This document shows positions 1 through 21,688 of a stretch of DNA of 21,688 nt, piece by piece. The translations under genes were made by a program, and so were the position numbers. The notes beneath the pieces are model-generated. The model was given only the letters and a program-made list of their open reading frames with translations, ran no database searches and had not been told where the DNA came from. Within the stretch, counting starts at the first letter, position 1. Every line of letters starts with the position of its first letter. The stretch spans positions 1 through 21,688 of the forward strand of contig NZ_JAYKGW010000027.1 of NCBI RefSeq assembly GCF_035285525.1. The letters are read 5' to 3'. The DNA is from Okeania sp. (GTDB lineage: Bacteria; Cyanobacteriota; Cyanobacteriia; Cyanobacteriales; Microcoleaceae).

Positions 1-1
1 A

Positions 2-334
2 ATTACGGCGGCTTTTAATGTGAATATTTTATCTCATTTGAATTGGCGTTTTCAAGGAAATTTTGATATAAATTTATTCAGTCATAAAGCAATTTATAAT
101 GAGGCTGAAACTCAAATTGAAATGTATCTTTATTGCCAAGAAAATATTACCTTTTCTTTGAAAAATCTAGATTTAAAAGTTAGTTTTCAGGCAGGGGAAA
201 GTATCCTAACTGAAATTTCTCGTAAATTCGATTTAGAAGTTTTGCCAGGAGAACTTGAAGCGAAAGGATTAAAAGTTAAGAAAGTTTTGACAGACCCGAA
301 AAAGTGGTTTGGATTAATTCTTTGTCAAGTTTAA
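2..334 (+). CDS. egtD: L-histidine N-alpha-methyltransferase (EgtD family), 3' part only; the gene starts upstream of the window
   Basis: The frame is open from base 2 (ITAAFN precedes the tabulated ORF 20..334). The translation TAAFNVNILSHLN...IEMYL...FQAGESILTEISRKF...LTDPKKWFGLIL follows the conserved C-terminal layout of EgtD (AAFN.N.L, IEM.L, F.AGE..TE.S.KF, TDP..FGL.L). A sulfoxide synthase gene follows on the same strand. Confidence 0.85.
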   Translation: MTAAFNVNILSHLNWRFQGNFDINLFSHKAIYNEAETQIEMYLYCQENITFSLKNLDLKVSFQAGESILTEISRKFDLEVLPGELEAKGLKVKKVLTDPKKWFGLILCQV

Positions 335-337
335 ATT

Positions 338-390
338 GAAGAAAGAAGAAAGAAGGAAGAAGGAAGAAGGAAGAAGGAGGAAGAAAAAAA
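338..390. repeat. Polypurine tract with tandem GAAGGAA heptamers (STRR-like)
   Basis: gaagaaagaagaaagaaggaagaaggaagaaggaagaaggaggaagaaaaaaa lies directly after the egtD stop. The same heptamer array recurs at 21349-21379. Confidence 0.85.
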
Positions 391-675
391 TATGGTAAAC
401 ATATTTTCTATAGAATTATGCCCAGAAAGGGTTCATCTTTCAGCAATTAGCTTCATATTTTAGGAAGTTATAATCCAGTTGAGAAAAACTGAAATCTTAT
501 TTTCAACTATGACTAGCATCTGTTTGCTGAATAAGTCTTTTTTTGAGGTAGGAAGTAAAGACCTTGCATACAACGTTCCTACAGCTTTATCATTATTCAC
601 AACAAAAACTCAATCCTAGATTTTAAATATATTACAAAAGTAAGCAATTAAAATTATTCACTCATTTCTAACACT

Positions 676-2019
676 ATGAATCAGATCAAATCTACTAATC
701 CACCAAAAATTGATGGTTCTAAAACTAACAGTAACATCCGCCAATATATTCGAGAATATTTTCAGAATAGTTGGGAAATTGAAGACATTTTAATGAATAG
801 TTTAATAGCAGAAGAAACATTTTATTTAAACCCCGACTCTTTAAGAAATCCACTAATTTTTTATCTCGGACATTCGGCGGTTTTTTACATTAATAAATTA
901 ATCAGAGTAGAATTATTAGAAAAACGCCTTAATCCTAACTACGAAATATTATTTGAAATGGGGGTAGACCCAGAAAAACCAGAAGACTTAAATCAGGCGA
1001 TCGCTAACATTAATTGGCCGAAACTAGAAGATATTTGGCAATATCGAGAAAAAGTTTATCAAGTCATTTTAGACCTAATTGAAAAAACTCCTCTTAATCT
1101 TCCTATTCACCAAAATCATCCTCTTTGGGCGTTAATGATGAGTATTGAACATCAACGGATTCATATTGAAACTTCATCAATGTTGTTTCGGCAACTATCT
1201 GTAGAAAAATTAAAACATCCTCATAATTGGGAATATGCTCCTACTAATAATCAGATAATTAATAATGAAATGATAGAAGTTTCTGGAGGAGTTGTCAAAC
1301 TAGGAAAACCAGAAAATTATCCGACATTTGGTTGGGATATAGAATATGGCGATCGCCAAGTTGAAGTAGCTCCTTTTATGGCTAGTAAGTATTTAATTAC
1401 TAATGCAGAATTTCTGGAATTTGTTAAAGTTGGTGGTTACGAAAATCCAGATTATTGGAGTCAAGAAAGTTGGCTTTGGAAAACTGGAAATAATATTAAA
1501 TATCCCAAATTTTGGATAGTTGAAAATGGTAATTATAAATATCGAGCTATGTTTGATGAAATAGAATTACCTTTAGATTGGCCTGTAGAAGTTAATCATT
1601 ATGAAGCAATGGCTTATTGTTCTTGGCAAGGAGAAAATACTCGGTTAATGACTGAAGCTGAATATAATTTAGCAACTTATAGAAATGGTAAAGAAGTAGA
1701 AACAGATAATTATAATCTGAATTTTAAATTTGGTTCTCCTTCTCCTGTTGGTTACTTAGAAACTGCCAAAAATGAATCAGGATTATATGATTTGCGGGGT
1801 AATGTTTGGGAATGGTTAACTGATAAATTAAATCCTCTTTCTGGATTTAAAACTCATCAACTTTATGAAGATTATTCAGCTCCATTTTTTGATAATAGAC
1901 ATAATATGATGTTAGGAGGATGTTGGATAACTAACGGTACAGAAGCTTTGAAATATTATCGAAATTGGTTCCGTCCTAACTTTTATCAACACGCTGGTTT
2001 TAGAATAGTTCAGGGATAA
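676..2019 (+). CDS. egtB: Sulfoxide synthase, OvoA-like type without the C-terminal methyltransferase domain (cyanobacterial EgtB-type enzyme)
   Basis: 447 aa. The N-terminal DinB-like domain has candidate iron-ligand histidines in LIFYLGHSAVFYINKL and MMSIEHQRIHIETSSML. These motifs resemble OvoA more than actinobacterial EgtB. The C-terminal FGE-sulfatase-like domain shows LYDLRGNVWEWL and GGCW. It sits next to egtD. Confidence 0.85.
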   Translation: MNQIKSTNPPKIDGSKTNSNIRQYIREYFQNSWEIEDILMNSLIAEETFYLNPDSLRNPLIFYLGHSAVFYINKLIRVELLEKRLNPNYEILFEMGVDPEKPEDLNQAIANINWPKLEDIWQYREKVYQVILDLIEKTPLNLPIHQNHPLWALMMSIEHQRIHIETSSMLFRQLSVEKLKHPHNWEYAPTNNQIINNEMIEVSGGVVKLGKPENYPTFGWDIEYGDRQVEVAPFMASKYLITNAEFLEFVKVGGYENPDYWSQESWLWKTGNNIKYPKFWIVENGNYKYRAMFDEIELPLDWPVEVNHYEAMAYCSWQGENTRLMTEAEYNLATYRNGKEVETDNYNLNFKFGSPSPVGYLETAKNESGLYDLRGNVWEWLTDKLNPLSGFKTHQLYEDYSAPFFDNRHNMMLGGCWITNGTEALKYYRNWFRPNFYQHAGFRIVQG

Positions 2020-2041
2020 TGGATAATGGATAATGGATAAT
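2014..2041. repeat. Tandem heptamer GGATAAT x4 (STRR-type), overlapping the egtB stop codon
   Basis: ggataatggataatggataatggataat read directly in the sequence. Confidence 0.9.
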
Positions 2042-2501
2042 TAATAATTATTAGGTTGGTAAATTTTGTAATAAATTGAAGATTTTTTGCCTCCCCAAAA
2101 TTTGCTGGTTACTCAAACTTTAAATTTTTCATAATTGTCAATTATCAATTATCACAATTAATTATCGAATGGAGAATTAAAATGGCTGGAAATTTTTCAA
2201 ATGTATCTGAGAAAGAATCATTTATACCGGATATAAATTCGGGAAACGATGATATTAACACAACCTAGGAAAAGAGTAATGAAGAATGGTGGGACTGGTA
2301 TGTTTCCTGAGCTGAAAATATTTGTGGCTGAAAATTTAGTATAAGTTAAAAAAAAAGCTGGCTTCATTAATTTTTATTGTGCTTGAGCTGACTGCTGACT
2401 GCTAATAGCTAAATACTTACGTTTAAATTAATAACTTTAAGATGCTGTTGTTTGTGCAGAATATCGCAGAAAATACTTACTTTAATAAACATAGTAAAAC
2501 C

Positions 2502-3449
2502 ATGAGATTTATTAGCCACAAAACAGACTTTGCTTTCAAAAAAAATATTTGGCTCCACTGAGAGTAAAGATATTTTAATTAGTTTTTTGAATGCTTTAAT
2601 TCTGGTAAATCAACAATTCAAGATTTAGAAATAATCGACCCCTATACTCCAGGAGATACCATTAGTTTAAAAGATACTTATCTAGATGTAAGAGCTATTT
2701 TAAATGATGTCTCCAATGTAATAATTGAAATTCAGGTTTTAAACGTTCCCGCATTTGAAAAGCGAGTAGTTTATAATCTATGTAAAACTTATGGGAATCA
2801 ATTAGACACTGGAGAGGGATATCGAAGATTAAAACCAGTAATTGCTTTAACGATTACAGATTTTAAAATGTTTGAGGACACAGAACGATATATTAATCAT
2901 TTTGTGTTTAAAGAGAAAGAGAAATCATTTAATTATGTACATGAAGAAGTAGCAATGATATTTGTTGAATTACCAAAATTTCCGAAAAAATTAGAAGAGT
3001 TAGAAACTATCACACATAAATGGATTTATTTTGTAAAATCAGCTTCAAGTTTAGAAGTAATTCCCACAAATTTAGCAGAAATAAAAGAGATAGAAAAAGC
3101 TTTAAATATTGCTAATCTGGCAAATCTATCAAGAAAAGAATTAGAGGAAGTACACAAGCGGGAAGTATTTTTAGAAGACCGTGCAGGTCAAATTATTCTA
3201 GCTCTACAGGAGGGAAAAGAAGAAGGACTACAGCAAGGAATAGAGCAAGGGTTAGAAGCGGGTAAGTTGTCAATGCAAAGACTAATATTAGGTTAACTGG
3301 AGAGAAAATTTTCAGCAGAAATTCCTGCCATAATTAAAGATAATATTCAACAGTTATCCCTGGAAAAGTTAGAAAATTTAGGAAGAATAATTGATAATTT
3401 TAGTAGTTGAGAATATTTGTCTAACTGCTGCCATAAATCAGAAAAGTAG
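2502..3449 (+). pseudogene. Decayed Rpn-family recombination-promoting nuclease / PD-(D/E)XK putative transposase
   Basis: It starts MRFISHKTDFAFKK like the intact paralog at 19245-20165 (MRFISPKIDYVFKK), then loses frame in an A8 run (2538-2545). Homology continues in other frames (ESKDILISFLNAL, DTYLDVRAIL..IIEIQV) and in ORF 2868-3296 (VELPKF, KWIYF). An in-frame TAA at 3294 aligns with Q of the paralog (LIIRQLKKRF vs LILG*LERKF). An in-frame TGA follows at 3408. The C-terminal LEKLENLG matches IEELENLG. Confidence 0.85.
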
Positions 3450-3602
3450 TAAGTTTTCAACAATTAATAATTACCTCTTATTTTTGATAATAATAAGATT
3501 AAGCTAAAGGAAATTTTTTCTCCATAAATGGAGAGGTTTTATACCTTATTTTTTTTGGTAAATTAGTGTTAAAATATTATAGTAAAAGGTTATGCATAAA
3601 TT

Positions 3603-3932
3603 ATGACTCAGAAAAAATTTTACCTATTAACTGACCCAAGTATTATTTGTTCTTATCTGGTATCTAAGTGGATTAAAGCTTTTGAAAAAATGCCAGAATT
3701 TCAAGGAATATTAGTAAAAGAGGAAGTTCCATCAGACAGAGTAATTAGAGAGAGGAAAACTTTTCATCAAAAATACTTTGGTCAAAAACACTTGACTGAT
3801 AAAATGTACGAATTATTAATTGATTTGTATCCTGATATAGATAGAACTGAAAGAGCAATGATCGAGCGATACGGAGTATCTCAGTATTCTACTACCGAGC
3901 ATTCTCAAACAATTTTCTTGGGAATAATTTGA
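3603..3932 (+). CDS. Formyltransferase-fold protein, N-terminal fragment (first half of a split gene)
   Basis: 109-aa ORF ending TIFLGII*. The stop overlaps the TTG start of the next ORF (TTGA, 3929-3932). Together the two ORFs make one formyltransferase-like domain (see finding). Confidence 0.55.
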   Translation: MTQKKFYLLTDPSIICSYLVSKWIKAFEKMPEFQGILVKEEVPSDRVIRERKTFHQKYFGQKHLTDKMYELLIDLYPDIDRTERAMIERYGVSQYSTTEHSQTIFLGII

Positions 3933-4453
3933 ATGGAAAATATGCTAAGAATTGGTTAATGGAAGTTGCTGAAAATTCCTCAGTATTCATTTTTGTTTGT
4001 GCTACTAAAATACTTAAATCTTGGTGGTTAGAAATAACTAAAAATCAAGTGTTTAATAGTCATACAGCTGTTCTACCTTATGCTCGTGGAATGTATGCGA
4101 TTGAGAATATGGCAATTAATAAAAATATTAACCAGTTTAGACAAGCAGCAGGGGTAACTATACATTATGTTGATGAAGGGGTAGATACAGGTTCAATAAT
4201 TAGAACAGAAAGAATAGTTGATCCGTTTCGCTTTAATTCCATTTGGGATTTAAAAGGATATTTATACCTTACCGAATTTGAGTTATACGTGAAAACTGCC
4301 CAAGATATTCTCAGCAACAATGAAACTATTCCTGCTGGAGTTTCACCGGATCCTAAATTGCTAGGTCCTAATTTTAGGATAAAAGACTTTACTCCAGAGA
4401 AACAAAAACAAGCAGAAGATGGTTATTTATGGATGAAAAATTCCTGGCGATAA
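3929..4453 (+). CDS. Formyltransferase-fold protein, C-terminal fragment carrying the catalytic motifs
   Basis: FNSHTAVLPYARG matches the N-x-H-x-S-L-L-P-x-x-R-G motif of Fmt/PurN-type formyltransferases. GVTIHYVDEGVDTGSII matches the G-x-T-x-H-x-x-x-x-x-D-x-G-x-I aspartate motif. The only start in the ORF track is TTG. This frame is open upstream back to 3851. Confidence 0.6.
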   Translation: MNGKYAKNWLMEVAENSSVFIFVCATKILKSWWLEITKNQVFNSHTAVLPYARGMYAIENMAINKNINQFRQAAGVTIHYVDEGVDTGSIIRTERIVDPFRFNSIWDLKGYLYLTEFELYVKTAQDILSNNETIPAGVSPDPKLLGPNFRIKDFTPEKQKQAEDGYLWMKNSWR

Positions 4454-4525
4454 TTTTATCTTATTTTAAGGTAAACTAAGTAAATATTCATTTAATTTTA
4501 ATTTTTTTTAGATGGGAAATAAACA

Positions 4526-4912
4526 ATGATTAAAGTTCAAAAAATACAAAACAAAGGGCGGGGTATTTTTGCGGTACAGGATATTCCGAAAGGAACATTA
4601 CTTGAAGTTGCTCCCACGGTAATTTTGCCACCTGAACAATTACAAACTCTGAATCAGACGAAAGTCTTAGATTATTATTTTGTACAACCATCAGAATATG
4701 CTACAGCTAAGAAAATAAAAGGATATTTGGTTTTAGGTTTAGCTTCTCTTTGTAATCATGGGGAAGACCCTAATTCTTATGTTGAATGGATTGAAGATGA
4801 AGTATGTGTATGGTCACATTTAATCACCAAAAAAGATATTAAAAATGGTGAGGAAGTTACCCTTTTCTACACCAATATTAATGAATATCCTGATGGTGGA
4901 ACTTTTGTTTAA
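4526..4912 (+). CDS. Small SET-domain methyltransferase
   Basis: 128 aa. GRGIFAVQDIPKGTLL (SET N-region), LASLCNHGEDPNS (NH.C.PN-type motif) and GEEVTLFY (post-SET E-E-L-T-x-x-Y type). Confidence 0.75.
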   Translation: MIKVQKIQNKGRGIFAVQDIPKGTLLEVAPTVILPPEQLQTLNQTKVLDYYFVQPSEYATAKKIKGYLVLGLASLCNHGEDPNSYVEWIEDEVCVWSHLITKKDIKNGEEVTLFYTNINEYPDGGTFV

Positions 4913-4924
4913 TAGATAGTAAGC

Positions 4925-4950
4925 ATTCAGCTATGAGTTCATAGCTGAAT
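4925..4950. repeat. Perfect 12-bp-arm palindrome of the dispersed AGCATTCAGC repeat family; possible terminator of the SET gene
   Basis: attcagctatga-gt-tcatagctgaat. Related half-sites occur at 5851, 5999-6015 and 16994. There is no clean T-run after it. Confidence 0.5.
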
Positions 4951-5049
4951 ACTTACCTTTGTTCAACCAAGATTAAGAAGCTTAACAAGATTAATTACTC
5001 CCAAATTTTTCTAACCATTAATCTAACTTTACCAAATAGATAAATTAAC

Positions 5050-5784
5050 ATGAACAATTCTCAAATTACATCATTAAAAGAATTTCAAACAACAGGATAC
5101 TTTTTGCAAGAAAATTTTATTTCTCAGACAGAATGCGATTCTTTATTACAACTAATTGCTGATTATCGCCAGACAAATTCTGTTCCTAAAATCTATCGCA
5201 ATGTTAAACCCATACCCTTAAGTTATTTTGTCATAGATGGAAAAAGAATTCAGTCTCAAATTCCAGAAGTTCAAAAATTATATGAAACTGTGAATCAAGT
5301 TATTAATAACTTCACAAATAAACAACTTTTTCCTTTACAAGATATTCAGGTAGGGTGCAATATTAATATTACTGAAAAAGGAGGTACATATCGCTGGCAT
5401 TATGACCGAAATGCTATTACAGCTCTTTTATATTTAAACAAAGTTGATGGAGGAGAAATTCAGCTTTACCCCAATTATAGAATTACTTTACCTGAAGCTA
5501 AATTTTCTAGATTTCAGAGTGTGATAGATCGGGTACAACAATTGAGTTTTTTTCGTCAAATCTTTGGCAAACAAATTATGATTAAACCTCAACCAGGTCT
5601 ACTATTAGTTATGGCTGGGGATAAATGTCTACATAGTGTTCGTCCAGTTACAGAAGAAAAGGAGCGAATTAATATTGTTATGGCTTACGATTTACCTAAT
5701 GCTAATTTTGTAGTTAAAAACCAACTTAATACTTATTTATATAGTTCAGAAAAGTTTGACAGTAAAGATCCAAATTACTCTTAA
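5050..5784 (+). CDS. 2OG-Fe(II) oxygenase, prolyl-4-hydroxylase-like
   Basis: 244 aa. YRWHYDRN (HxD iron motif), ITALLYLNKVDGGEIQLYP and the distal CLHSVRPV histidine, with ERINIVMAY downstream. Confidence 0.8.
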   Translation: MNNSQITSLKEFQTTGYFLQENFISQTECDSLLQLIADYRQTNSVPKIYRNVKPIPLSYFVIDGKRIQSQIPEVQKLYETVNQVINNFTNKQLFPLQDIQVGCNINITEKGGTYRWHYDRNAITALLYLNKVDGGEIQLYPNYRITLPEAKFSRFQSVIDRVQQLSFFRQIFGKQIMIKPQPGLLLVMAGDKCLHSVRPVTEEKERINIVMAYDLPNANFVVKNQLNTYLYSSEKFDSKDPNYS

Positions 5785-5850
5785 ATCTGGTATAGACTTA
5801 TGGCGAGCAAGATGCCCGCACTACAATAATTTTACCATTAAAATCTTGTC

Positions 5851-6015
5851 AGCATTCAGCCGTCAGCTATTAGCTAACAGTTATTCGTTTTATTCCATGA
5901 CAAAAGCTTTATTAATTGAGCTAGAAAAATATAGCTACAAAAGTCAAATCGAAAGTCTATATTAATTTAAACTTCATCCTTAAGCCCAGAATCTTATTGC
6001 TAATAGCTGAATGCT
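5851..6015. repeat. MITE-like unit bounded by inverted AGCATTCAGC...TATTAGC ends
   Basis: The left end agcattcagccgtcagctattagc (5851-5874) is the reverse complement of the right end gctaatagctgaatgct (5999-6015), apart from a 7-nt indel. It explains the doubtful ORF 5756-5965. Confidence 0.55.
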
Positions 6016-6049
6016 TTATATATCCAAAATATGCTTTAATAACTGATAA

Positions 6050-6556
6050 ATGATAACTGAAATGAAGCCAAATCCAATTCCACCAAAACCCGGTCAAGAA
6101 TCTGTATGGGATTATCCCCGTCCACCTCGTTTAGAAGATACAAATAAATCTATTCGAGTCATTTTTAATAATGTAGTTTTGGCTGAAACAAATAATGCCA
6201 AAAGATTATTAGAAACTAGCCATCCTCCTGGTTATTATATTCCTCCTAAAGATGTTAAAATAGAGTATTTAATTCCTAATCCCAGGAAAACTTTTTGTGA
6301 GTGGAAAGGTTATGCTTCCTATTGCGATGTTTCAGTAGGAGATAAATATGTAAATCATCCAGTCTGGCAATATTTAGACCCAACTCCTTATTTTTTACCT
6401 ATACAAGGATATTATAGTTTTTATGCTAATTTAATGGATGCTTGTTATGTCAATGATGAGTTAGTAAAACCTCAAGCTGGTAATCTTTATGGAGGATGGA
6501 TTACTTCTGATATTGTCGGACCTTTTAAAGGAGAACCAGGTACAAGAGGTTGGTAA
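6050..6556 (+). CDS. DUF427 domain protein
   Basis: 168 aa. ESVWDYPRPPRLE, ETSHPPGYYIPPKDV and FCEWKGYASYCDV are the signature stretches of DUF427 (PF04248-type). The start could be ATG 6050 or ATG 6062. Confidence 0.8.
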   Translation: MITEMKPNPIPPKPGQESVWDYPRPPRLEDTNKSIRVIFNNVVLAETNNAKRLLETSHPPGYYIPPKDVKIEYLIPNPRKTFCEWKGYASYCDVSVGDKYVNHPVWQYLDPTPYFLPIQGYYSFYANLMDACYVNDELVKPQAGNLYGGWITSDIVGPFKGEPGTRGW

Positions 6557-6748
6557 ATAATGAATAATTGATAATTTATAATTAATATTCAGTGGAAACT
6601 ACCGACTAATTACGACAAATTTATAAATCAAATTCTTAAGCAATATATTCTCAAAGCAGAACTGAAGCAATTTATTCTCGATAATCTCTTCTCTGACTTG
6701 AAAATACTGATGAATAATTTATTACAAAAATAAGCCATCGCTAGCTTT

Positions 6749-7623
6749 ATGCAAATTGATAAAAAAATGAACAATAATATTAATTTAATAACTGATAATT
6801 CTGAACTTTCAAAATCTTACTATCAACCAGAAAAATTAGAGCTGGATTCATGGTTTCAGGTAGCTCAGATAGATTACGAAAAATTAATTGAGCAATATTC
6901 ATTTAATAATCTATTTAAAGGATTTGCTAAAAATCAACTCAAACTTCTAGATATAGGATGTGGCAGTGCTAAATTTCCTAGTTTGCTAGACAAAAAACTT
7001 GATGGCAATATTCATTTATCAGCAGATTTGCTTGATATTTCAGAATACTCTCTACAGTTGGCAAAAAAACGGTTTGATAGTTGTCAGTATTTTAGTACAA
7101 ATTCAACCTACTTATCTGCTACTGAAAATCTTCAACAATTAGTTAAAAAAAACTAACTGCTACGATATTATATGGGCGATACATTCTCTTTATACTGTTG
7201 ATAAAAATAGAATGGCAGATGTCTATCTTTATTGTTTAGATTTATTAGATGATAATGGTAAGTTTTTAATTTACCAACCTGCTCAAACATCTTCTTACCA
7301 CAACTTATATGATTTTTTATTTTAGCAATTATCCAGAAGGAAAAAAATCTACATATTTTCTCAAATCTGATGAACACAAACAAATTTTGGATAGATTAGG
7401 AATAAATTATGATAATATTAGATTGAGTTTTTTTCACAGCATCAGTTTGGAAAGTATAAATGTACTTGAAATATATTTAAAATAATGTGTTTTTGATTAC
7501 ACATTAGATGTCTTAAATTTTTTTCAGCCTATATTACAAAAGTGTTTTGATAGAAAAAACAATCAATACAAGTTTGAGCAGATAGTTGATTTGATTATTA
7601 TTGAAAAAGCCAGTAATATTTAG
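6749..7623 (+). pseudogene. Class I SAM-dependent methyltransferase, disrupted by two frameshifts and one in-frame stop
   Basis: Motif I LKLLDIGCGSAKF lies in ORF 6749-7156, which ends in an A8 run (7145-7152). Homology continues in frame 0 from 7161 (YDIIWAIHSLYTVDKNRMADVYLYCLDLLDDNGKFLIY). A second shift occurs near the T-run at 7313-7322, giving NYPEGKKSTYFLKSDEHKQILDRLG. An in-frame TAA at 7483 is followed by CVFDYTLDVLNFF... up to TAG 7621-7623. Confidence 0.75.
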
Positions 7624-8557
7624 CAATATAAGGAAGATAACAAACAATGATAGAAATTCACAAAAAGCTGCGATCGCTAATTTTTTCTCAGACCCAAAAC
7701 TCAAACTCGTCAAGCTTAATGAGCAAGAATATATGGAGGGGTTAATTGCTTATCGCAGTCAAAATAATGAACAAGAAATGATGCTGGAAGCTACATTTCA
7801 GACTATAGAAAAATATAAGTCTTCACAAGAAAGCTACAGAATTTTGAGTATAGGTTGTGGCTGTGGAATTTTTGAGCAAGCTTTTTTAACAAAGCTCCTT
7901 GATTTGAACAAATATATTCATTTTGTTGGAGTAGACCCAAACAAAGTAGAGTGTATAAAAATACAAGAATGGTGTCATAAACTTAGTACATATAAACCAG
8001 ATAAATTTAGGTTTGAAATTCATCCTGTTACCTTAGAAAAATTTCAAGCACTTCAAACTTTTGACATTATTTTATTAATCCATTCATTTTACTATTTTTC
8101 AGAAATTACATCTTCTGTTGAGAAAGTTTATAAACTTATGGAAGAAGAAGGAATTGCAATTGCCACAATAAATTTAAAAAGACCAATAAGTGAACCTTAC
8201 TATTATGTAAATCAGCGATTTTATCAAAGACAGAGGTTTTATAGTGAAGATTTATATCGAGTTCTTTCTGAACAAAATATTTTTTTTCATCAAGAAACTA
8301 TAGAATCTCCAATAAATATTACAAATTGTTTTGAAAAAGATTCTCTATTGGGTAAATATTTACTGGATTTTCTAGTTGATGCTAATACGACATATTTTTC
8401 TCCTTCCCAATTACAATTATTGCTGGATTATTTTAGAACTAATTCCCAAAGGTTGAAAGGGGGAGAAATTATGATTCAAAATTCTATAGGCTTTTATTAT
8501 TTTCAGAAAAGTAAAGAACAAGAAATAAAAAAAGGGAGCCAAGAAAACTTAAAATAA
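7601..8557 (+). CDS. Histamine N-methyltransferase (HNMT)-like class I SAM methyltransferase
   Basis: 318 aa. It is collinear with animal HNMT as I remember that sequence. FFSD matches LFSD. RILSIGCGCGIFEQAFLTKL matches ILSIGGGAGEIDLQILSKV. FDIILLIHSFYYF matches FIHMIQMLYYV. ITNCF..LGKYLLDFLVD matches ISDCF..GDLLWDFLTE. The only upstream start is TTG 7601, which overlaps the end of the preceding pseudogene. Confidence 0.7.
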   Translation: MKKPVIFSNIRKITNNDRNSQKAAIANFFSDPKLKLVKLNEQEYMEGLIAYRSQNNEQEMMLEATFQTIEKYKSSQESYRILSIGCGCGIFEQAFLTKLLDLNKYIHFVGVDPNKVECIKIQEWCHKLSTYKPDKFRFEIHPVTLEKFQALQTFDIILLIHSFYYFSEITSSVEKVYKLMEEEGIAIATINLKRPISEPYYYVNQRFYQRQRFYSEDLYRVLSEQNIFFHQETIESPINITNCFEKDSLLGKYLLDFLVDANTTYFSPSQLQLLLDYFRTNSQRLKGGEIMIQNSIGFYYFQKSKEQEIKKGSQENLK

Positions 8558-8628
8558 CTATAGAAGCCTAAATTATTGTTATTGAGCAATATTTTGTAAG
8601 TAATTTTCAAGGTAAATGGAGCAAATTT

Positions 8629-8844
8629 ATGTTTGTAACAGGAATCAAAAAAGGTAAAATTATTGAGTTATTGGAGGAGGTAGATTTTCTCGATAATCAA
8701 GAGGTTTTAGTAGAAATTAAAAAGGTAGGTAATTTTTGGTCAGCTTTACAAGATTTGAGGGCAAGGGTAGATTTAGAAATTATTGATGATGATTCTTTTG
8801 AGAATTTACGAGATAAGTCACCAGGGAGAATGGTTGATTTATGA
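8629..8844 (+). CDS. Putative antitoxin, upstream partner of a PIN-domain toxin
   Basis: 71-aa ORF. Its TGA overlaps the ATG of the downstream PIN gene (ATGA at 8841-8844), a typical type II TA arrangement. Confidence 0.6.
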   Translation: MFVTGIKKGKIIELLEEVDFLDNQEVLVEIKKVGNFWSALQDLRARVDLEIIDDDSFENLRDKSPGRMVDL

Positions 8845-9137
8845 CACTAAAATATTTATTAGATACGAATATTTTATCTGAGATGAAACGCCCTTAACCT
8901 AATCAAAAAGTAATGGAAAAACTAAGGTTATGTAAACTGGAAATAGCAACTGCTACTGTGGTTGTACATGAATTATTGTACGGATGTTTTAGAATTGCTA
9001 AATCTAAAAAACGTCAAGATTTGGAAGATTATATAAATAATGTGATTTTAGCACAGTTACCTTTATTTAATTATGATTTAAAATCCGCACAATATCATGG
9101 ACAGGAAAGAGCAAGGTTATCTAAATTCAGCTATTAG
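8841..9137 (+). pseudogene. vapC: VapC-type PIN-domain toxin, inactivated by an in-frame TAA at 8895 and a 3' truncation
   Basis: The translation is MTLKYLLDTNILSEMKRP*PNQKVMEKL....HELLYG....LPLFNYDLKSAQYHGQERARLSK. This matches the VapC pattern LLDTNILSE..RP.PN..V, ..EL..G and FD..AA. The C-terminal G.PI...D..IAA part is absent. Confidence 0.75.
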
Positions 9138-9348
9138 TTTTTAGCACCTCTAGCTGTTGGCGCACCATTCCGCAGGAAAGCATTAGGATTGAACTACGAA
9201 ATGTTCTTTTTTTTATCCCCTTAAAATCAGTTATCAGTTAGTGGAAGGAGAGGAAAATAGGATTGATTCAAAAAATTAATAATTTACAAAAGATTATCAA
9301 TTATTCTTCCCTGTTCCCTGTTCCCTTTTTTCTGGAGATGTCTAGTAA

Positions 9349-10640
9349 TTAATCTATTAATCTATGAATCAAACTATGCCAAATTAAACCAATAATAATT
9401 AACCCTAAACCTACTAACCAAATTTCCTGCTCTACCCAAAAAGCTAAAAATAAACAAGCAGCTAAACCTACCCAACCTAACCATTGAGGATAAAGTCTTT
9501 CTGCTGGTGAAAGTTGGAGAGCAGCAAAATTAGTAATAGCATAATAAATCAAAACATTACAAGCACTAAAAGACCAAGTAGTTTTCACATCCCCTATTAA
9601 AACTAAAAAAGCGATCGCTACTCCCACAACTATCACCGCAACATAAGGTGTAGTTTCTCCACTATTTAATCTAGCAAAAATTTTAGGTACATCTCGTCGT
9701 CGTCCCATTGCTAACAAAACTCGCGATAAACCCAAAATCAGATTTAGCAATACTCCCAACATTGCCGTAATCGCACCAACCGCAATTAATTTAGGAATTA
9801 TAGGAACACCCAATCCAACTTGAGCAATAACTTCTAAAGGTGCAGCTAAACTAACATCTGCTTGAGATAATTTATCTATCACTTCTTTACCAACTACCAC
9901 CGTAACTACAGAAATAGAAATATATAACAAACAAGTGACAAATATCGTGAGAGCGATCGCTCTGGGAATAGTACGTCGGGGTTCCTTAACTTCCTCACCC
10001 AAAGTCGCAATCCGACCATAACCAGTGTAAGCAACAAACATTAAAGCAGCAGCTTGCAATAAAGATGGAATAGGTTCCTCGGCGCTCAAAAAAAGTGTGA
10101 TATTTTCTCCCCCAGACAAAACTACTTGAGGTACTCCTGCTACGATGAATACAGTTAAAGAAAATAATGTAATCGAAACAATAATAATATTAGTCACATT
10201 AGAACGACGAATCCCACTTAAGACAACTATTGTTAATATAACCACAGCAGTGACAGCAGTCAATACTAACCAAATTTGATTATTGATGCCAAAAACATGA
10301 AGTAAATAACCAGCAAAACCCAAAGCAGCAGTAGCAGCAGAAGCACTTTTTGCTAAGAGAAACATCCATCCAGCGATGAAACCTAACCAATGATTCAGAT
10401 ATTTGTAACCATATTCATAAGTACCGCCACTAACAGGATGATTTGCTGCTAACTGGGCGCTATTAAAAGCATTGCAAGTAGCAACAATAGCACCTATCGC
10501 CACCGAATAATTACAGATCGACCTGCAATACTAGCAGCAATACCAATGCTGACAAATACTCCAGTACCGACTATTGAACCTAAACCCATAAGGGTAGCGC
10601 CGAATACGCCAATTTCTCGTTTTAGTTTAGATGTAGACAT
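9349..10640 (-). pseudogene. APC-family amino acid permease with an N-terminal frameshift
   Basis: ORF 9349-10503 is a polytopic membrane protein (NAFNSAQLAANHPVSGGTYEYGYKYL, many hydrophobic helices). The true N-terminus MSTSKLKREIGVFGATLMGLGSIVGTGVFVSIGIAASIAGRSVII is encoded from ATG 10640 in another frame. That frame stops at 10494. The shift lies at about 10504-10530. Confidence 0.8.
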
Positions 10641-10860
10641 TTTCAGTTATTATTATTAGTCCAGTAGGGTGTGTTTCCGCTCTTAACTTTTCTGTTGTCT
10701 CATTATCTAGCCCTGGTTGTCGTTTGTTATGCTTCTGAATAGTTTACATCAGTCTCGTTGGCTAGTCAAGACTACCAAATACAGTAGGGCCGAATGGCAT
10801 TTCCTAAGGTCATGATCGATTCATGTCGCGCAGCGATACGCCCCTAAAAATAGAATAAAT

Positions 10861-10941
10861 AGCGATCGCCCCAAACCACCTTGACAAATTTAACTCCGTC
10901 GCGCTACTCTGAAAAAGAACTACTAGAAAACCAATCAAAAG
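10861..10941 (+). repeat. About 80-bp direct repeat, copy 1, containing a promoter-like TTGACA-18-TACTCT; abuts the antitoxin start
   Basis: agcgatcgccccaaaccaccTTGACAaatttaactccgtcgcgcTACTCTgaaaaagaactactagaaaaccaatcaaaa. TTGACA is at 10881-10886 and TACTCT at 10905-10910. Copy 2 is at 11672-11752. Confidence 0.6.
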
Positions 10942-11193
10942 ATGACCAAACTATTAGAAGAGGCGATCGCTGCCCTAGCCAAACTTCCAGAATCAGAACA
11001 AGATGGTATTGCCACTCTAATCCTAGAAAATATTGCCTCAGAAAAATCTCAGACACAACCTGTTACCAAACCCTTCTGGCAGAAAATCCAAGAAATAGGC
11101 GCTAAAGTACCTAAAGAGGAATGGGAAAAACTGCCAACAGATTTTGCTCGCAACTTTGAAAGCTATATGTATGGAACACCCAAAGAAGAATGA
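10942..11193 (+). CDS. Putative antitoxin of a PIN-toxin module
   Basis: 83 aa, MTKLLEEAIAALAKLPESEQDGIATLILENI. The stop overlaps the ATG of the PIN gene (ATGA at 11190-11193). Confidence 0.65.
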   Translation: MTKLLEEAIAALAKLPESEQDGIATLILENIASEKSQTQPVTKPFWQKIQEIGAKVPKEEWEKLPTDFARNFESYMYGTPKEE

Positions 11194-11606
11194 GACGAAT
11201 ATTTTTAGATACTTCTTATCTTCAAGCTCTCGCAGACGAACGCGACGATTTACACCATAAGGCGATTACTGTCTCCGAAAGTCAAGGTACATAAGTTGGC
11301 ATAACTACCGAGATGGTACTAACGGAGCTACTAAACGCCTTATCTAACCGAGGAGAATATCTGCGACAAGTGGCAATAGATATTGTTGAAACTTTGCGTG
11401 CCGCTGCAAATATAGAAATTATTCCCCAAAGTAGCCAACAGTTTGAGAAGGCAATGAAATTTTACCAACAACGATTGGATAAAGGCTATAGTCTTACCGA
11501 CTGTGCCTCTATGCTAGTGATGAAAGAAGAAAGTGTATGGGAAATAATGACTTACGATCGCCATTTTATCCAAGAAGGATTTAATGCCTTACTCAGAGAT
11601 GATTAG
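11190..11606 (+). pseudogene. PIN-domain toxin with an in-frame TAA at 11292-11294
   Basis: The N-terminal part MRRIFLDTSYLQALADERDDLHHKAITVSESQGT*VGITTE is in the same frame as ORF 11313-11606 (MVLTELLNAL...SLTDCASM...TYDRHF). PIN acidic positions are recognisable (FLDTS, TTEMVLTE, LTDC, YDRHF). Confidence 0.75.
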
Positions 11607-11671: not shown

Positions 11672-11752
11672 AGCGATCGCCCCTCAACTACCTTGAAAAA
11701 ATTAACCCCGTCGCTCTACTCTGAAAAAGAACTACTAGAAAATCAATTAAAA
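11672..11752 (+). repeat. About 80-bp direct repeat, copy 2 (TTGAAA-18-TACTCT), not followed by any gene
   Basis: agcgatcgcccctcaactaccTTGAAAaaattaaccccgtcgctcTACTCTgaaaaagaactactagaaaatcaattaaaa. It is roughly 85 percent identical to copy 1 by eye. Repeat-derived sequence follows it. Confidence 0.6.
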
Positions 11753-13732: not shown

Positions 13733-13803
13733 TTATAGATAATTAATAATTAATAATTAATAATGGATAATTAGGGTTTGTTGAAAAAGTCTTTATTTTA
13801 GGG

Positions 13804-16524: not shown

Positions 16525-16554
16525 AGGGAATAGGGAACAGGGAACAGGGAACAG
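16525..16554. repeat. Tandem heptamer GGGAACA x3 (STRR-type)
   Basis: gagggaatagggaacagggaacagggaaca. The complementary CCCTGTT copies are at 9310-9327. Confidence 0.85.
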
Positions 16555-19244: not shown

Positions 19245-20165
19245 TTACTGATGCAGCCAATTTTCTAAATCAGTTATGCTATTAAAATCCAAGAAGTCTT
19301 CTCCCAAATTTTCTAATTCTTCAATAGTTAAATTTTTAATCTTGCTCATAGTTTCTGGAGTTATTTCCCCAAAACGCTTTTTGAGTTGACGTATTATTAA
19401 AGCGATCGCCTCATCTTTTCTCCCTTCTTGTTTACCTTCCTGTTTACCTTCTTCTTTAGCAAAAGTTATTTTTCCCCTTTCATCTTGTAATGTCATTGCC
19501 CGATATTGTGCTACTTCTAATTCTTCTGGACTCATACCTGCTTGGTTCGCCAAATTTAGAGCTAATTCTATTTCTGATATTTCTGCTAAAGAAGCAGGAA
19601 TATCATCGAAACTAGAAGCTTCTTTCAGGAAATAAATCCATTTATCTGCTAAACTTTCTAATTCTGAGAGTTCTTTTTTAAATTTCGGTAATTCCACAAA
19701 TACTAATAGTAATTCCTCATCATCCAAAAATTCAAAATTGTCAATTTTATCTTTAAATACAAATTGATTAATAATTCTCTGGTTTTTTTCAAACAGAATA
19801 AAATCGGTAATTGTCACACCTATAACTGGTTTGAGTCTCATATAATCATCAGCAACTTTTAATTGATTAGCATATCCTTTGGCTACGTTATAAAGTACCC
19901 GTTTAGTAAAGTTTGTCATGGATGATACTTGCATTTCAATCATCACAATTTTTCCATCAGCTAAGACTGCTTTTACATCCAAATAAGTGTCTTTTAAAGT
20001 GAACACTTTCCCAGGATTATAAGGATTAATAATGGTTAAAGATTGAATAGTTTTTTCTCCATTGTAAATTACAGCATTGAGGAAACTAATTAAGATATCT
20101 GTACTTTCTTCAGAGCCAAAAACTTTTTTGAATACATAATCTATTTTCGGGCTAATAAATCTCAT
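19245..20165 (-). CDS. Rpn-family recombination-promoting nuclease / PD-(D/E)XK putative transposase, intact
   Basis: 306 aa. MRFISPKIDYVFKKVFG, DTYLDVKAVLADGKIVMIEMQV (D...E-x-Q/K nuclease core), FVELPKF, KWIYFLK and a charged C-terminal tail are typical of the YhgA/Rpn (TIGR01784-like) family. Confidence 0.85.
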   Translation of the reverse strand: MRFISPKIDYVFKKVFGSEESTDILISFLNAVIYNGEKTIQSLTIINPYNPGKVFTLKDTYLDVKAVLADGKIVMIEMQVSSMTNFTKRVLYNVAKGYANQLKVADDYMRLKPVIGVTITDFILFEKNQRIINQFVFKDKIDNFEFLDDEELLLVFVELPKFKKELSELESLADKWIYFLKEASSFDDIPASLAEISEIELALNLANQAGMSPEELEVAQYRAMTLQDERGKITFAKEEGKQEGKQEGRKDEAIALIIRQLKKRFGEITPETMSKIKNLTIEELENLGEDFLDFNSITDLENWLHQ

Positions 20166-20384: not shown

Positions 20385-20588
20385 AGTTTTTTTCTCGGCA
20401 ATTATTTCTTATGGCTATAGGAGATATTTCAGTAAATAATAAATGACAGCTAAGTGGATAATTAATAATTAAATAATTCAGGTTAAATCCTCCTCTTTTC
20501 AGGAGAAAAAGCACTCATTAATCCTATCTATTTTAGAGAGAAATAATTATCAATTATCCATTATCAATTATTAATTATTAATTATCCA

Positions 20589-21341
20589 TTAATGAACTGC
20601 CATTTCCAAATAACCAGAAATTTCCCGACAATATTCATTACATAATTGTGACATTCGGAAATCTTCATTACGAGGATAATTCGCATCTATTTTCACATCT
20701 GCTATTACTCTACCAGGACGGGCAGCCATCACAATTACTCTTTGAGATAAATACACTGCTTCATAAATATTATGAGTCACAAAAATTACAGTCCAATTTC
20801 GTTTTTGCCACACATCTAATAGATCGCTATTTAATTTACTTCGAGTCATTTCATCCAAAGCACCAAAAGGTTCATCCATCAATACAATTCTTGGTTGAGT
20901 TACTAAAGCTCTAGCAATAGAAACTCGCATTTTCATTCCACCTGATAACTGTCTTGGATAAGAACGTTCAAAACCATCTAATCCAACTAAATTAATTGCT
21001 TCTTGTAAAATTGTACGAGATTCTTTGAGGGATTTTCCTGTTAGTTTGAGAGGTAAATGTACATTATCAATAACATGAGACCAAGGCATTAAAGCTGGTT
21101 CTTGAAATACAAAAGCTAAGTCATTTTTATGCTGATTTATATTTGATTCGATTTTGCCAGAAGTAACTTCACTTAATCCGGCAATTAATCTCAATACTGT
21201 ACTTTTTCCACAACCAGAAGGTCCAACAAGAGTGATAAATTGACCTTCATTAATTGTCAAATTCATATCTTGTAAAGCAACAGTTCCATTAGTATAAATT
21301 TTATTGACTTGATGACAAGAAATAGCGGTTTTATTGTTCAT
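20589..21341 (-). CDS. ABC transporter ATP-binding protein, NitT/TauT (nitrate/sulfonate/taurine/bicarbonate) type
   Basis: Walker A is GPSGCGKST, the signature is LSGGMKMRVSIARAL and Walker B is IVLMDEPFGALD. The protein homology begins at MNNKTAISCHQV (ATG 21341). The 55-codon upstream extension in the ORF track runs through repeat DNA. Confidence 0.88.
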   Translation of the reverse strand: MNNKTAISCHQVNKIYTNGTVALQDMNLTINEGQFITLVGPSGCGKSTVLRLIAGLSEVTSGKIESNINQHKNDLAFVFQEPALMPWSHVIDNVHLPLKLTGKSLKESRTILQEAINLVGLDGFERSYPRQLSGGMKMRVSIARALVTQPRIVLMDEPFGALDEMTRSKLNSDLLDVWQKRNWTVIFVTHNIYEAVYLSQRVIVMAARPGRVIADVKIDANYPRNEDFRMSQLCNEYCREISGYLEMAVH

Positions 21342-21348
21342 TTTTTTT

Positions 21349-21379
21349 AAGAAGGAAGAAGGAAGAAGGAAGAAGGAAG
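21349..21379. repeat. Tandem GAAGGAA heptamers (STRR-type), 8 nt from the ABC gene start
   Basis: aagaaggaagaaggaagaaggaagaaggaag. This is the same motif as at 338-390. Confidence 0.85.
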
Positions 21380-21397
21380 TAAAAAGGAAAAATCTTA

Positions 21398-21688
21398 TAA
21401 TAATTTTGGTAACACAGCCTTCCAGGCGGTAAGAAGCAGGATACTTAAACTGCAAATAACTTGACCTCACTATCCTCAAAAGTGCTGTTAATAATTTTGG
21501 TAACACAGCCTTCCAGGCTGTAAGAAGCAGGATGCTTAAACTGCAAATAACTTGACCTCATAAAGACTAGAATTGTGTTAGTAATTTTGGTAACACAGCC
21601 TTCCAGGCTGTAAGAAGCAGGATGCTTAAACTGCAAATAACTTGACCTCATAAAGACTAGAATTGTGTTAGTAATTTTGGTAACACAG
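21398..21688. repeat. Tandem array of 90/91-bp units (at least 3.2 copies), truncated by the window end
   Basis: ggtaacacagcc recurs at 21408, 21499, 21589 and 21679. Units 2 and 3 differ at one base. Unit 1 shares the first 67 or so nt and diverges in the last 22 or so nt. Each unit contains a 7-bp hairpin, acagcct-tcc-aggctgt. Confidence 0.9.

Follow-up and report, generated by a model that had tools for sequence, protein, structure and literature searches.

A type IV ergothioneine core within a mosaic gene block of Okeania sp., with DUF427 as its most widely linked partner

Does a run of enzyme genes that follows the ergothioneine genes of a cyanobacterium on one strand encode a single pathway, or does it join parts with different functions? 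This question is raised by positions 1-8557 of the window, by which we mean the whole stretch of DNA analysed, namely the entire contig of a metagenome-assembled genome (MAG) of Okeania sp., 21,688 bp in length. Here egtD and a sulfoxide synthase gene are followed by genes for a formyltransferase-fold protein, a SET-domain methyltransferase, an Fe(II)/2-oxoglutarate (2OG) oxygenase, a DUF427 protein and two methyltransferases, one of them dead. A sequence-only reading of this DNA had tentatively combined the six enzymes into one undescribed thiohistidine-tailoring pathway. Our analysis revealed a mosaic assembled around a known ergothioneine core in place of a single six-enzyme pathway. In a survey centred on type IV EgtB (EgtB-IV), a metagenome scan added 47 loci, and the proteins of the window and partner proteins were mapped onto 59 EgtB-IV loci; L-numbers denote the related loci compared with the window. 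Conserved synteny had been set beforehand as the test: the oxygenase, DUF427 and both methyltransferase families recurred with egtD and EgtB-IV, the formyltransferase-SET pair did not. The genes do not all co-occur across genomes, and the single pathway fails because the formyltransferase-SET pair stands alone elsewhere. This recurrent linkage makes a functional link of DUF427, the oxygenase and the methyltransferases to ergothioneine, and thereby to thiohistidine metabolism, plausible; for the formyltransferase-SET pair such a link is unlikely. With moderate confidence we read the block as a known core, a set of ergothioneine-linked accessory genes and unrelated formyltransferase-SET and Rpn parts. 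The block contains the following features:

1-334, plus strand: egtD, C-terminal ~110 residues, 5' part cut off by the contig start (PF10017, TIGR03438)
676-2019, plus strand: type IV EgtB, intact, 447 amino acids (aa) (TIGR04344, NWF motif, PDB 8vih)
2182-2319, plus strand: remnant of a PhyH-type Fe/2OG oxygenase, dead (tblastn)
2502-3446, plus strand: Rpn-family PD-(D/E)XK pseudogene with five in-frame stops
3517-3536, plus strand: terminator-like hairpin just 5' of the formyltransferase-SET pair (consensus match only, weak)
3603-4453, plus strand: formyltransferase-fold gene with one frameshift (PF00551; two open reading frames (ORFs) in different frames)
4526-4912, plus strand: SET-domain methyltransferase, 128 aa, intact (PF00856)
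4925-4950, plus strand: terminator-like hairpin with an 11-bp stem just 3' of the SET gene (weak)
5050-5784, plus strand: Fe(II)/2OG oxygenase, 244 aa, intact (2OG-FeII_Oxy_3, PF13640; HxD type)
6050-6556, plus strand: DUF427 protein, 168 aa, intact (PF04248)
6749-7625, plus strand: class I methyltransferase pseudogene, here called MT2 (tblastn matches in three frames)
7601-8557, plus strand: HNMT-like class I methyltransferase, here called MT318, 318 aa, intact (PDB HNMT 1jqe)

ORF calling confirmed all ORF positions of the sequence-only reading, and its intergenic gaps of 72, 137, 265 and 192 nucleotides (nt) are correct. No credible opposite-strand gene lies between, as it had stated, the sole minus-strand ORF (71 aa, 7168-7383) being located inside the MT2 pseudogene. 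Its view that a dead Rpn gene is the sole interruption was right in that the Rpn gene is dead, but the PhyH remnant at 2182-2319 had been overlooked. Positions 1-9000 are AT-rich (~30% GC), and the ratios of nonsynonymous to synonymous substitution rates (dN/dS) of the intact genes range from 0.16 to 0.49, i.e. they are under purifying selection. Scans of the window for tRNAs and Rfam families gave no matches. Promoter-like sites in the window are no more frequent than in shuffled sequence and are therefore uninformative on transcription units. The terminator count of the window is near chance, and we note just the hairpins on either side of the formyltransferase and SET genes.

The idea that all six enzymes act in one pathway draws on this arrangement, with its single strand, short gaps and lack of opposite-strand genes, and on the position of the formyltransferase-SET pair between EgtB-IV and the oxygenase in L002, L016, L028 and L029. 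Further afield, a 39%-identical formyltransferase of Brevibacillus laterosporus, encoded between SbnI-like and SbnA/SbnB-like genes without a SET gene, places a distant homologue in a small-molecule amino-acid (L-Dap-type) cluster. We nevertheless regard a six-enzyme pathway as highly improbable, since the pair is conserved on its own. A 128-aa SET gene follows a formyltransferase of ~283-289 aa in every cyanobacterial context examined (L016-L022), and in Crocosphaera (L021, L022) and another cyanobacterium (L019, L020) no gene of the egt, 2OG or DUF427 kind lies within 10 kb of the pair. Near EgtB-IV it was found at just 5 of the 59 loci, all from the Okeania/Trichodesmium/Dapis clade. Decay of the pair is frequent there: it is heavy in L002, and in Dapis M229 the pair is full of stops and partly deleted. 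In the window itself the formyltransferase is frameshifted and the pair is bracketed by the terminator-like hairpins. The pair is an independent two-gene module, and a pathway link to ergothioneine is unlikely. Its insertion between EgtB-IV and the oxygenase would have happened in the Okeania/Trichodesmium/Dapis lineage, together with that of an Rpn element.

The formyltransferase had been described as a gene with intact motifs. Both motifs are indeed present, namely NSH (N-x-H) and HYVDEGVDTG (Asp), and PF00551 is matched with 39.4 bits, but the gene is not a single intact ORF. Compared with four orthologues it lacks one nucleotide near 3909 (CC to C), a deletion that shifts the 3' two-thirds into another frame. 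A search with the repaired 283-aa protein gave 86 homologues, most of them from cyanobacteria; the best one is intact and comes from Trichodesmium (92% identical). The dN/dS against intact orthologues (0.18-0.27) is like that of two intact copies between themselves (0.26). From this we take the frameshift to have arisen very recently or else to reflect an assembly error; a sequencing error is a possible cause. The assignment of the 128-aa SET-domain methyltransferase was borne out by PF00856 (E 3e-13), and a SET7-like protein in PDB is matched with E 2e-11.

The core of the block belongs to a known pathway. The partial egtD reported before is supported by PF10017 (E 6.5e-32, profile positions 196-303 of 304); the fragment further matches TIGR03438 at positions 196-301 of 301 (E 4e-34), with a score under the full-length cutoff owing to the truncation, and is 76-85% identical to full-length egtD of Dapis and Okeania loci. 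The adjacent synthase scores 597 bits against TIGR04344 (cutoff 400) and 195 bits against TIGR03440, which places it in the OvoA branch and not with EgtB-I/II. It comprises an FGE-sulfatase domain (residues 197-445) and a weak DinB_2 match; no methyltransferase domain was found. Its best solved relatives are the sulfoxide synthase EgtB-IV structures 8vih (E 2e-198, ~70% identity) and 8vig, followed by OvoA 8khq (E 3e-106). The C-terminal YYRNWFRPNFYQHAGFRIV is identical in 8vih, as is YYRNWFRPNF, where OvoA 8khq has SRYAFRRHF with YAF at the NWF position. The composite active-site motif, of which our check covered the terminal part, ends in xNWFx in EgtB-IV and in (Y/F)AFx in OvoA (PMC11030361). 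The previous label of an OvoA-type sulfoxide synthase thus holds for the branch, but by its NWF motif the enzyme is specifically EgtB-IV and not OvoA proper. Ovothiol synthase identity is ruled out by the lack of a C-terminal SAM methyltransferase domain and by NWF in place of YAF. The dN/dS of EgtB-IV is 0.16-0.20. Every copy of egtD and EgtB-IV present in the Okeania/Trichodesmium/Dapis clade is intact; the Trichodesmium MAG L016 gave no egtD match upstream of its EgtB-IV.

According to published work, a small set of cyanobacteria has adopted an OvoA-like enzyme for making ergothioneine, and its gene clusters with egtD. This type IV pathway of EgtD and EgtB-IV goes back to Liao & Seebeck 2017, as cited in PMC9516567, PMC8433421 and PMC11030361; the structures 8VIG/8VIH are available for EgtB-IV. 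The window likewise has egtD beside an OvoA-branch synthase without methyltransferase domain (~70% identity, NWF). Judging from characterised homologues, EgtD would trimethylate histidine to hercynine, type IV EgtB would join cysteine to C2 of hercynine with O2 to give the sulfoxide, and a PLP-dependent C-S lyase encoded elsewhere would release ergothioneine. The published accounts we found give the egtD-OvoA-like pairing only, whereas the window adds DUF427, a BesD-like oxygenase and HNMT-like methyltransferases. Our literature search found no paper linking DUF427, 2OG oxygenase or HNMT-like methyltransferase neighbours with ergothioneine. The mycobacterial egtABCDE genes also form a clustered pathway with EgtD and a sulfoxide synthase, but the window is without EgtA, EgtC and EgtE, and its synthase is of a different type (IV), using cysteine. 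To our knowledge, the mycobacterial cluster has no extra oxygenase, DUF427 or methyltransferase genes. The ovothiol (OvoA/OvoB) and ovoselenol (OvsA/OvsM) systems employ the same synthase superfamily paired with imidazole N-pi-methylation. The methyltransferase of the ovs cluster stands as a protein of its own (PMC11030361), which parallels the stand-alone HNMT-like methyltransferases of the window. The synthase of the window, however, has the EgtB-IV motif and not that of OvoA/OvsA, and SenB and SenC are lacking; an ovoselenol or selenoneine cluster is thereby ruled out. The presence of egtD indicates hercynine-based chemistry as opposed to ovothiol or ovoselenol.

Which of the genes behind this core are tied to it? 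The most widely linked is DUF427, which lies within 7 kb of EgtB-IV at 22 of the 59 loci, and at 13 of the 19 well-flanked ones (at least 5 kb on both sides). If the gene is assumed to be about single copy in a genome of ~5 Mb, chance would account for well under 1% of loci. The association occurs in at least four gene orders (egtD-EgtB-2OG-DUF427; EgtB-DUF427-MurL-like; EgtB-egtD-DUF427; EgtB-DUF427-egtD2), with a fifth in which a radical SAM gene and then MurL-like-DUF427 follow EgtB at some distance. A MurL-like epimerase (~450 aa) and a radical SAM protein of ~518 aa recur by EgtB-IV/DUF427 (L023, L032, L038, L042, L048, L049, L054, L076, L016 and L004); the window is without both, and MurL-like remnants persist in close relatives. 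In Moorena sp. SIO3I6, DUF427 comes after two HNMT-like methyltransferases and is divergent from egtD and EgtB-IV, and in Oscillatoria sp. SIO1A7 it follows a second, EgtB-I/II-like gene. Two complete Dolichospermum genomes show EgtB-IV, egtD, a DegT-like fragment, a 518-aa radical SAM gene (in one genome) and then DUF427. After DUF427 these loci (L075/L076, 9054-11373) carry a fused permease/OpuAC-type binding protein and an ABC ATPase of betaine type, an arrangement that presumably resembles the ergothioneine transporter EgtUV.

The DUF427 call of the sequence-only reading was confirmed with 109.7 bits against PF04248 (cutoff 22.1; E 6e-32). The cyanobacterial orthologue of 164-168 aa is 65-90% identical across orders, with a dN/dS of 0.16-0.19. 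H58, C83 (in CEWKG) and C132 (in MDACYV) are invariant in the alignment, and a C-terminal extension is conserved. The structure model (predicted local distance difference test (pLDDT) 91.3) found 3DJM, an uncharacterised protein, as its sole fold match (Foldseek E 2e-9, TMt 0.89), and the fold search therefore gave no functional clue. In the literature, one paper only assigns DUF427 to the beta-tent fold. Thiol chemistry through the two invariant cysteines and the invariant histidine is a speculation that these residues allow. As the most widely linked partner, DUF427 would act in support of the core pathway or in redox cycling of ergothioneine. This bears on a further explanation, in which the accessory genes support plain ergothioneine by aiding the sulfoxide-to-thione step, by repairing oxidised ergothioneine or by salvage and uptake. 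The invariant cysteines of DUF427 are in line with it, as is its occurrence in Dolichospermum with just EgtB-IV and egtD and next to the EgtU/V-like betaine ABC transporter; our literature search moreover found no cyanobacterial ergothioneine derivative. We consider it improbable as an account of the whole set, since tailoring is what a hydroxylase and SAM methyltransferases typically do, and as they are lineage-restricted and dispensable, decoration fits them better.

The oxygenase had been described as a P4H-type 2OG-Fe(II) enzyme. Membership in 2OG-FeII_Oxy_3 holds (PF13640, 35.8 bits, cutoff 27), and H117, D119, H195 and R206, invariant in 54 relatives, represent the HxD...H iron triad and the 2OG-binding arginine. 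The P4H type does not hold, as structurally the enzyme is nearest to BesD/HalD. Foldseek searches with its AlphaFold2 (AF2) model (pLDDT 92.8) gave HalD, HalB, HalA, BesD and a BesD hydroxylase homologue as top matches (template modelling (TM) score ~0.7, E ~1e-13), so that the structures nearest to it belong to enzymes whose substrates are free lysine or ornithine. A prolyl 4-hydroxylase was rejected: P. putida P4H, the EF-Tu prolyl hydroxylase, ranks 38th (TMq 0.57) behind 37 proteins of BesD/Hal type, and the best PDB sequence match to a P4H reaches E 0.02 only. With BesD/HalA-D the oxygenase of the window has in common the fold, a size of ~245 aa and the stand-alone architecture, but sequence identity is only 14-16%, and the score against Pfam HalD (PF23169) is 24.4 bits, under the 26-bit cutoff. 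It is therefore BesD/Hal-like in fold and not a family member by sequence. Its iron ligands are of HxD, i.e. hydroxylase type, in contrast to the halogenase site. Halogenase activity is ruled out by the invariant HxD (not HxG), which indicates hydroxylation. The family is small, with 329 representative clusters (E <=1e-3) among 1.84 billion proteins.

The oxygenase is found near EgtB-IV at 7 of the 19 well-flanked loci. In a separate scan centred on the oxygenase (one genome per species, 15 loci; tblastn map and ORF clustering) it was located downstream of EgtB-IV in Dapis and Okeania, with 84-89% identity and gaps of ~140-2,200 nt, some of which hold an Rpn or formyltransferase-SET insert, and also in Calothrix (372-nt gap) and Pleurocapsa (115-nt gap). 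Roseofilum halophilum has an overlapping gene run of egtD, EgtB-IV, a second egtD paralogue, a methyltransferase, a HisC-type aminotransferase, the oxygenase and DUF427. EgtB-IV loci of this Roseofilum type (L011 6863-10008, L051, L068, L053) add a second EgtD paralogue, which is 39% identical to EgtD and above the TIGR03438 cutoff, a 2-ketoarginine-methyltransferase-like enzyme and the HisC-type aminotransferase. They may make a beta-methyl-histidine-derived betaine or thiol, a product suggested by the pairing of a transaminase with a keto-acid methyltransferase, which is the usual logic of amino-acid beta-methylation.

The two methyltransferases at the end of the block are distant paralogues (25-28% identical, E 8e-6). 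MT318 shows similarity to human HNMT (1jqe) over residues 66-300 of the query and 41-289 of the chain (E 1e-7), its only significant solved relative; this near full-length similarity bears out the HNMT-like label it had been given. HNMT methylates an imidazole nitrogen. The sequence similarity of MT318 to HNMT is low, however, and the cyanobacterial family is narrow; S-methylation by MT318 is equally possible as N-methylation. In a search of PDB at E <=1, MT318 had no match to full-length OvoA 8khq, which includes the OvoA methyltransferase domain. The start of MT318 is uncertain (274 aa from 7733 in the NCBI annotation, as compared with the proposed TTG start at 7601), and its dN/dS is 0.42-0.49. 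The family has 33 matches, confined to Okeania, Dapis, Moorena and Oscillatoria and often present as tandem paralogues. MT2, the 3' end of which overlaps the proposed TTG start of MT318, had been reported as a decayed class I methyltransferase; the decay is confirmed, and the fragment of 135 aa is part of a full-length pseudogene (6749-7625) in which an A8 run and a T6 run have each gained one nucleotide, giving two +1 frameshifts. This decay is real and not a sequencing error, because after repair of both frames an in-frame stop persists where homologues have Gln.

Both methyltransferase families are found at ergothioneine loci. In L047 and L049, EgtB-IV is immediately followed, after 160-nt gaps, by an intact MT2 homologue of ~280 aa; such homologues are also present in L025, L026 and L074, and the HNMT-like family adjoins EgtB-IV in Moorena. 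A 56%-identical relative of MT318 in Oscillatoria sp. SIO1A7 is located directly after a cluster of EgtD, MurL-like, methyltransferase, EgtC and EgtB-like genes. EgtC (332 bits) and EgtD (404 bits) score above cutoff there, and the two EgtB-like proteins of the locus reach 322-327 bits (cutoff 360).

Several observations weigh against a link of these accessory genes to ergothioneine. The oxygenase lies away from egt genes at 5 of the 15 loci (Lyngbya, Rivularia, two further cyanobacterial ones, and Pyrinomonadaceae MAGs), and its gene is frameshifted or lost in the close relatives L014, L016, L025/26 and L069. DUF427 orthologues are far from egt genes in Gloeothece PCC 7424 and Rippkaea PCC 8801, and 6 of the 19 well-flanked EgtB-IV loci are without DUF427. 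Members of the HNMT-like family occur in L024 in a multi-methyltransferase cluster by a contractile injection system, without egt genes. The sequence-only reading had noted the lack of a C-S lyase in the block, and none is encoded within the window. Many of the linked loci finally come from related marine Oscillatoriales, so that part of the signal is shared ancestry.

A rival explanation is that there is no functional link at all. The neighbourhood would then be synteny inherited in gene-poor, rearrangement-prone genomes, with DUF427 as a housekeeping protein and the oxygenase and methyltransferases acting on unrelated substrates. The high conservation of DUF427 across cyanobacteria and its location elsewhere in PCC 7424 and PCC 8801 would agree with this, as would the oxygenase genes found elsewhere, the frequent decay of accessory genes while egtD and egtB stay intact, and the other broken genes of the contig such as an APC permease. 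Inherited synteny does not readily explain, however, that the linkage persists through at least four gene orders and across Nostocales, Oscillatoriales and Pleurocapsales, and that it holds with a different EgtB class (EgtB-I/II-like) too. In addition, the nearest structures of the oxygenase act on free amino acids and HNMT methylates imidazole, both of which fit a histidine-derived substrate. We judge an absence of any link to be doubtful, but an alternative to be taken seriously.

If the accessory genes are linked to ergothioneine, the BesD/HalD-like hydroxylase and the two HNMT-like methyltransferases would be lineage-restricted tailoring enzymes acting on free histidine, hercynine or ergothioneine. 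The reactions we propose are hydroxylation of the side chain and methylation of an imidazole nitrogen or of sulfur, which would lead to hydroxy- and/or methyl-ergothioneine-type products. The specific reactions, including beta-hydroxylation, are speculative. Beta-hydroxyergothioneine is known only from a mushroom, and we know of no enzyme identified for it there. Any tailoring must be dispensable, since the accessory genes are repeatedly frameshifted or lost in the clade (L014, L016, L025/26, L069) and one methyltransferase is dead in the window.

Decay is not restricted to the accessory genes. The PhyH remnant consists of the first ~49 codons, with 59% identity to residues 1-49 of a 337-aa PhyH protein from L023 (tblastn), and the Trichodesmium MAG L016 retains a C-terminal PhyH part at the same position. 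Along its entire length the Rpn pseudogene shows 79-84% identity to intact Rpn genes found in L003 and L016, and its five in-frame stops rule out sequencing error as the cause. An intact but diverged Rpn-family gene at 19245-20165 on the minus strand (306 aa, PDDEXK_2 and DUF4351) is ~46% identical to the pseudogene (tblastn), and the two have in common a 182-nt inverted repeat with 73% complementarity. The transporter gene nearest to the block encodes an APC-family amino-acid permease (9349-10643, minus strand) that is frameshifted near 10506 and whose position is conserved in L001, L002, L014, L026, L030 and L069. The Okeania genome carries many broken genes, and where a genome is as gene-poor and decaying as this one, neighbours on one strand can give a misleading picture.

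The contig also carries repeats. Tandem heptamers of GGATAAT/TAATAAT, GAAGGAA and TTCCCTG types are found in spacers right next to genes (2005-2057, 6546-6584, 13735-13773, 20542-20594; 336-421, 21349-21420; 9307-9329, 16529-16550) and look like the STRR repeats of filamentous cyanobacteria. A 90-nt unit occurs in 3-4 tandem copies (86-99% identity) from 21395 to the contig end at 21688, upstream of a minus-strand ABC ATPase gene. A 72-nt direct repeat (88% identical, 10869-10940 and 11681-11752) surrounds the gene pair 10942-11606, composed of an 83-aa ORF and a weak PIN-domain ORF, which looks like a toxin-antitoxin-like cassette. Another small gene pair (8629-9137) is shared with L014, L026 and L030.

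As an antioxidant of microbes and of the diet, ergothioneine attracts intensive study, and its cyanobacterial route has been described only as EgtD plus an OvoA-derived EgtB. In the boldest reading, which we put forward tentatively, DUF427 would be an unrecognised but conserved partner of cyanobacterial ergothioneine loci, accompanied by interchangeable tailoring enzymes for free amino acids (the BesD-like hydroxylase, HNMT-like methyltransferases, and the Roseofilum-type HisC-like transaminase with a keto-acid methyltransferase) with which marine filamentous cyanobacteria would make undescribed ergothioneine analogues of hydroxy-, N/S-methyl- or beta-methyl type. The formyltransferase-SET pair stands apart as a separate conserved module without annotated function. 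The most valuable lead is the association of DUF427 with EgtB. If DUF427 and the small oxygenase family do act together with this core, DUF427, a widespread family with a solved structure, would gain its first functional context and a testable role, the post-sulfoxide step or the redox recycling of ergothioneine in cyanobacteria would become experimentally approachable, and a route to natural hydroxylated or methylated ergothioneine analogues would open.

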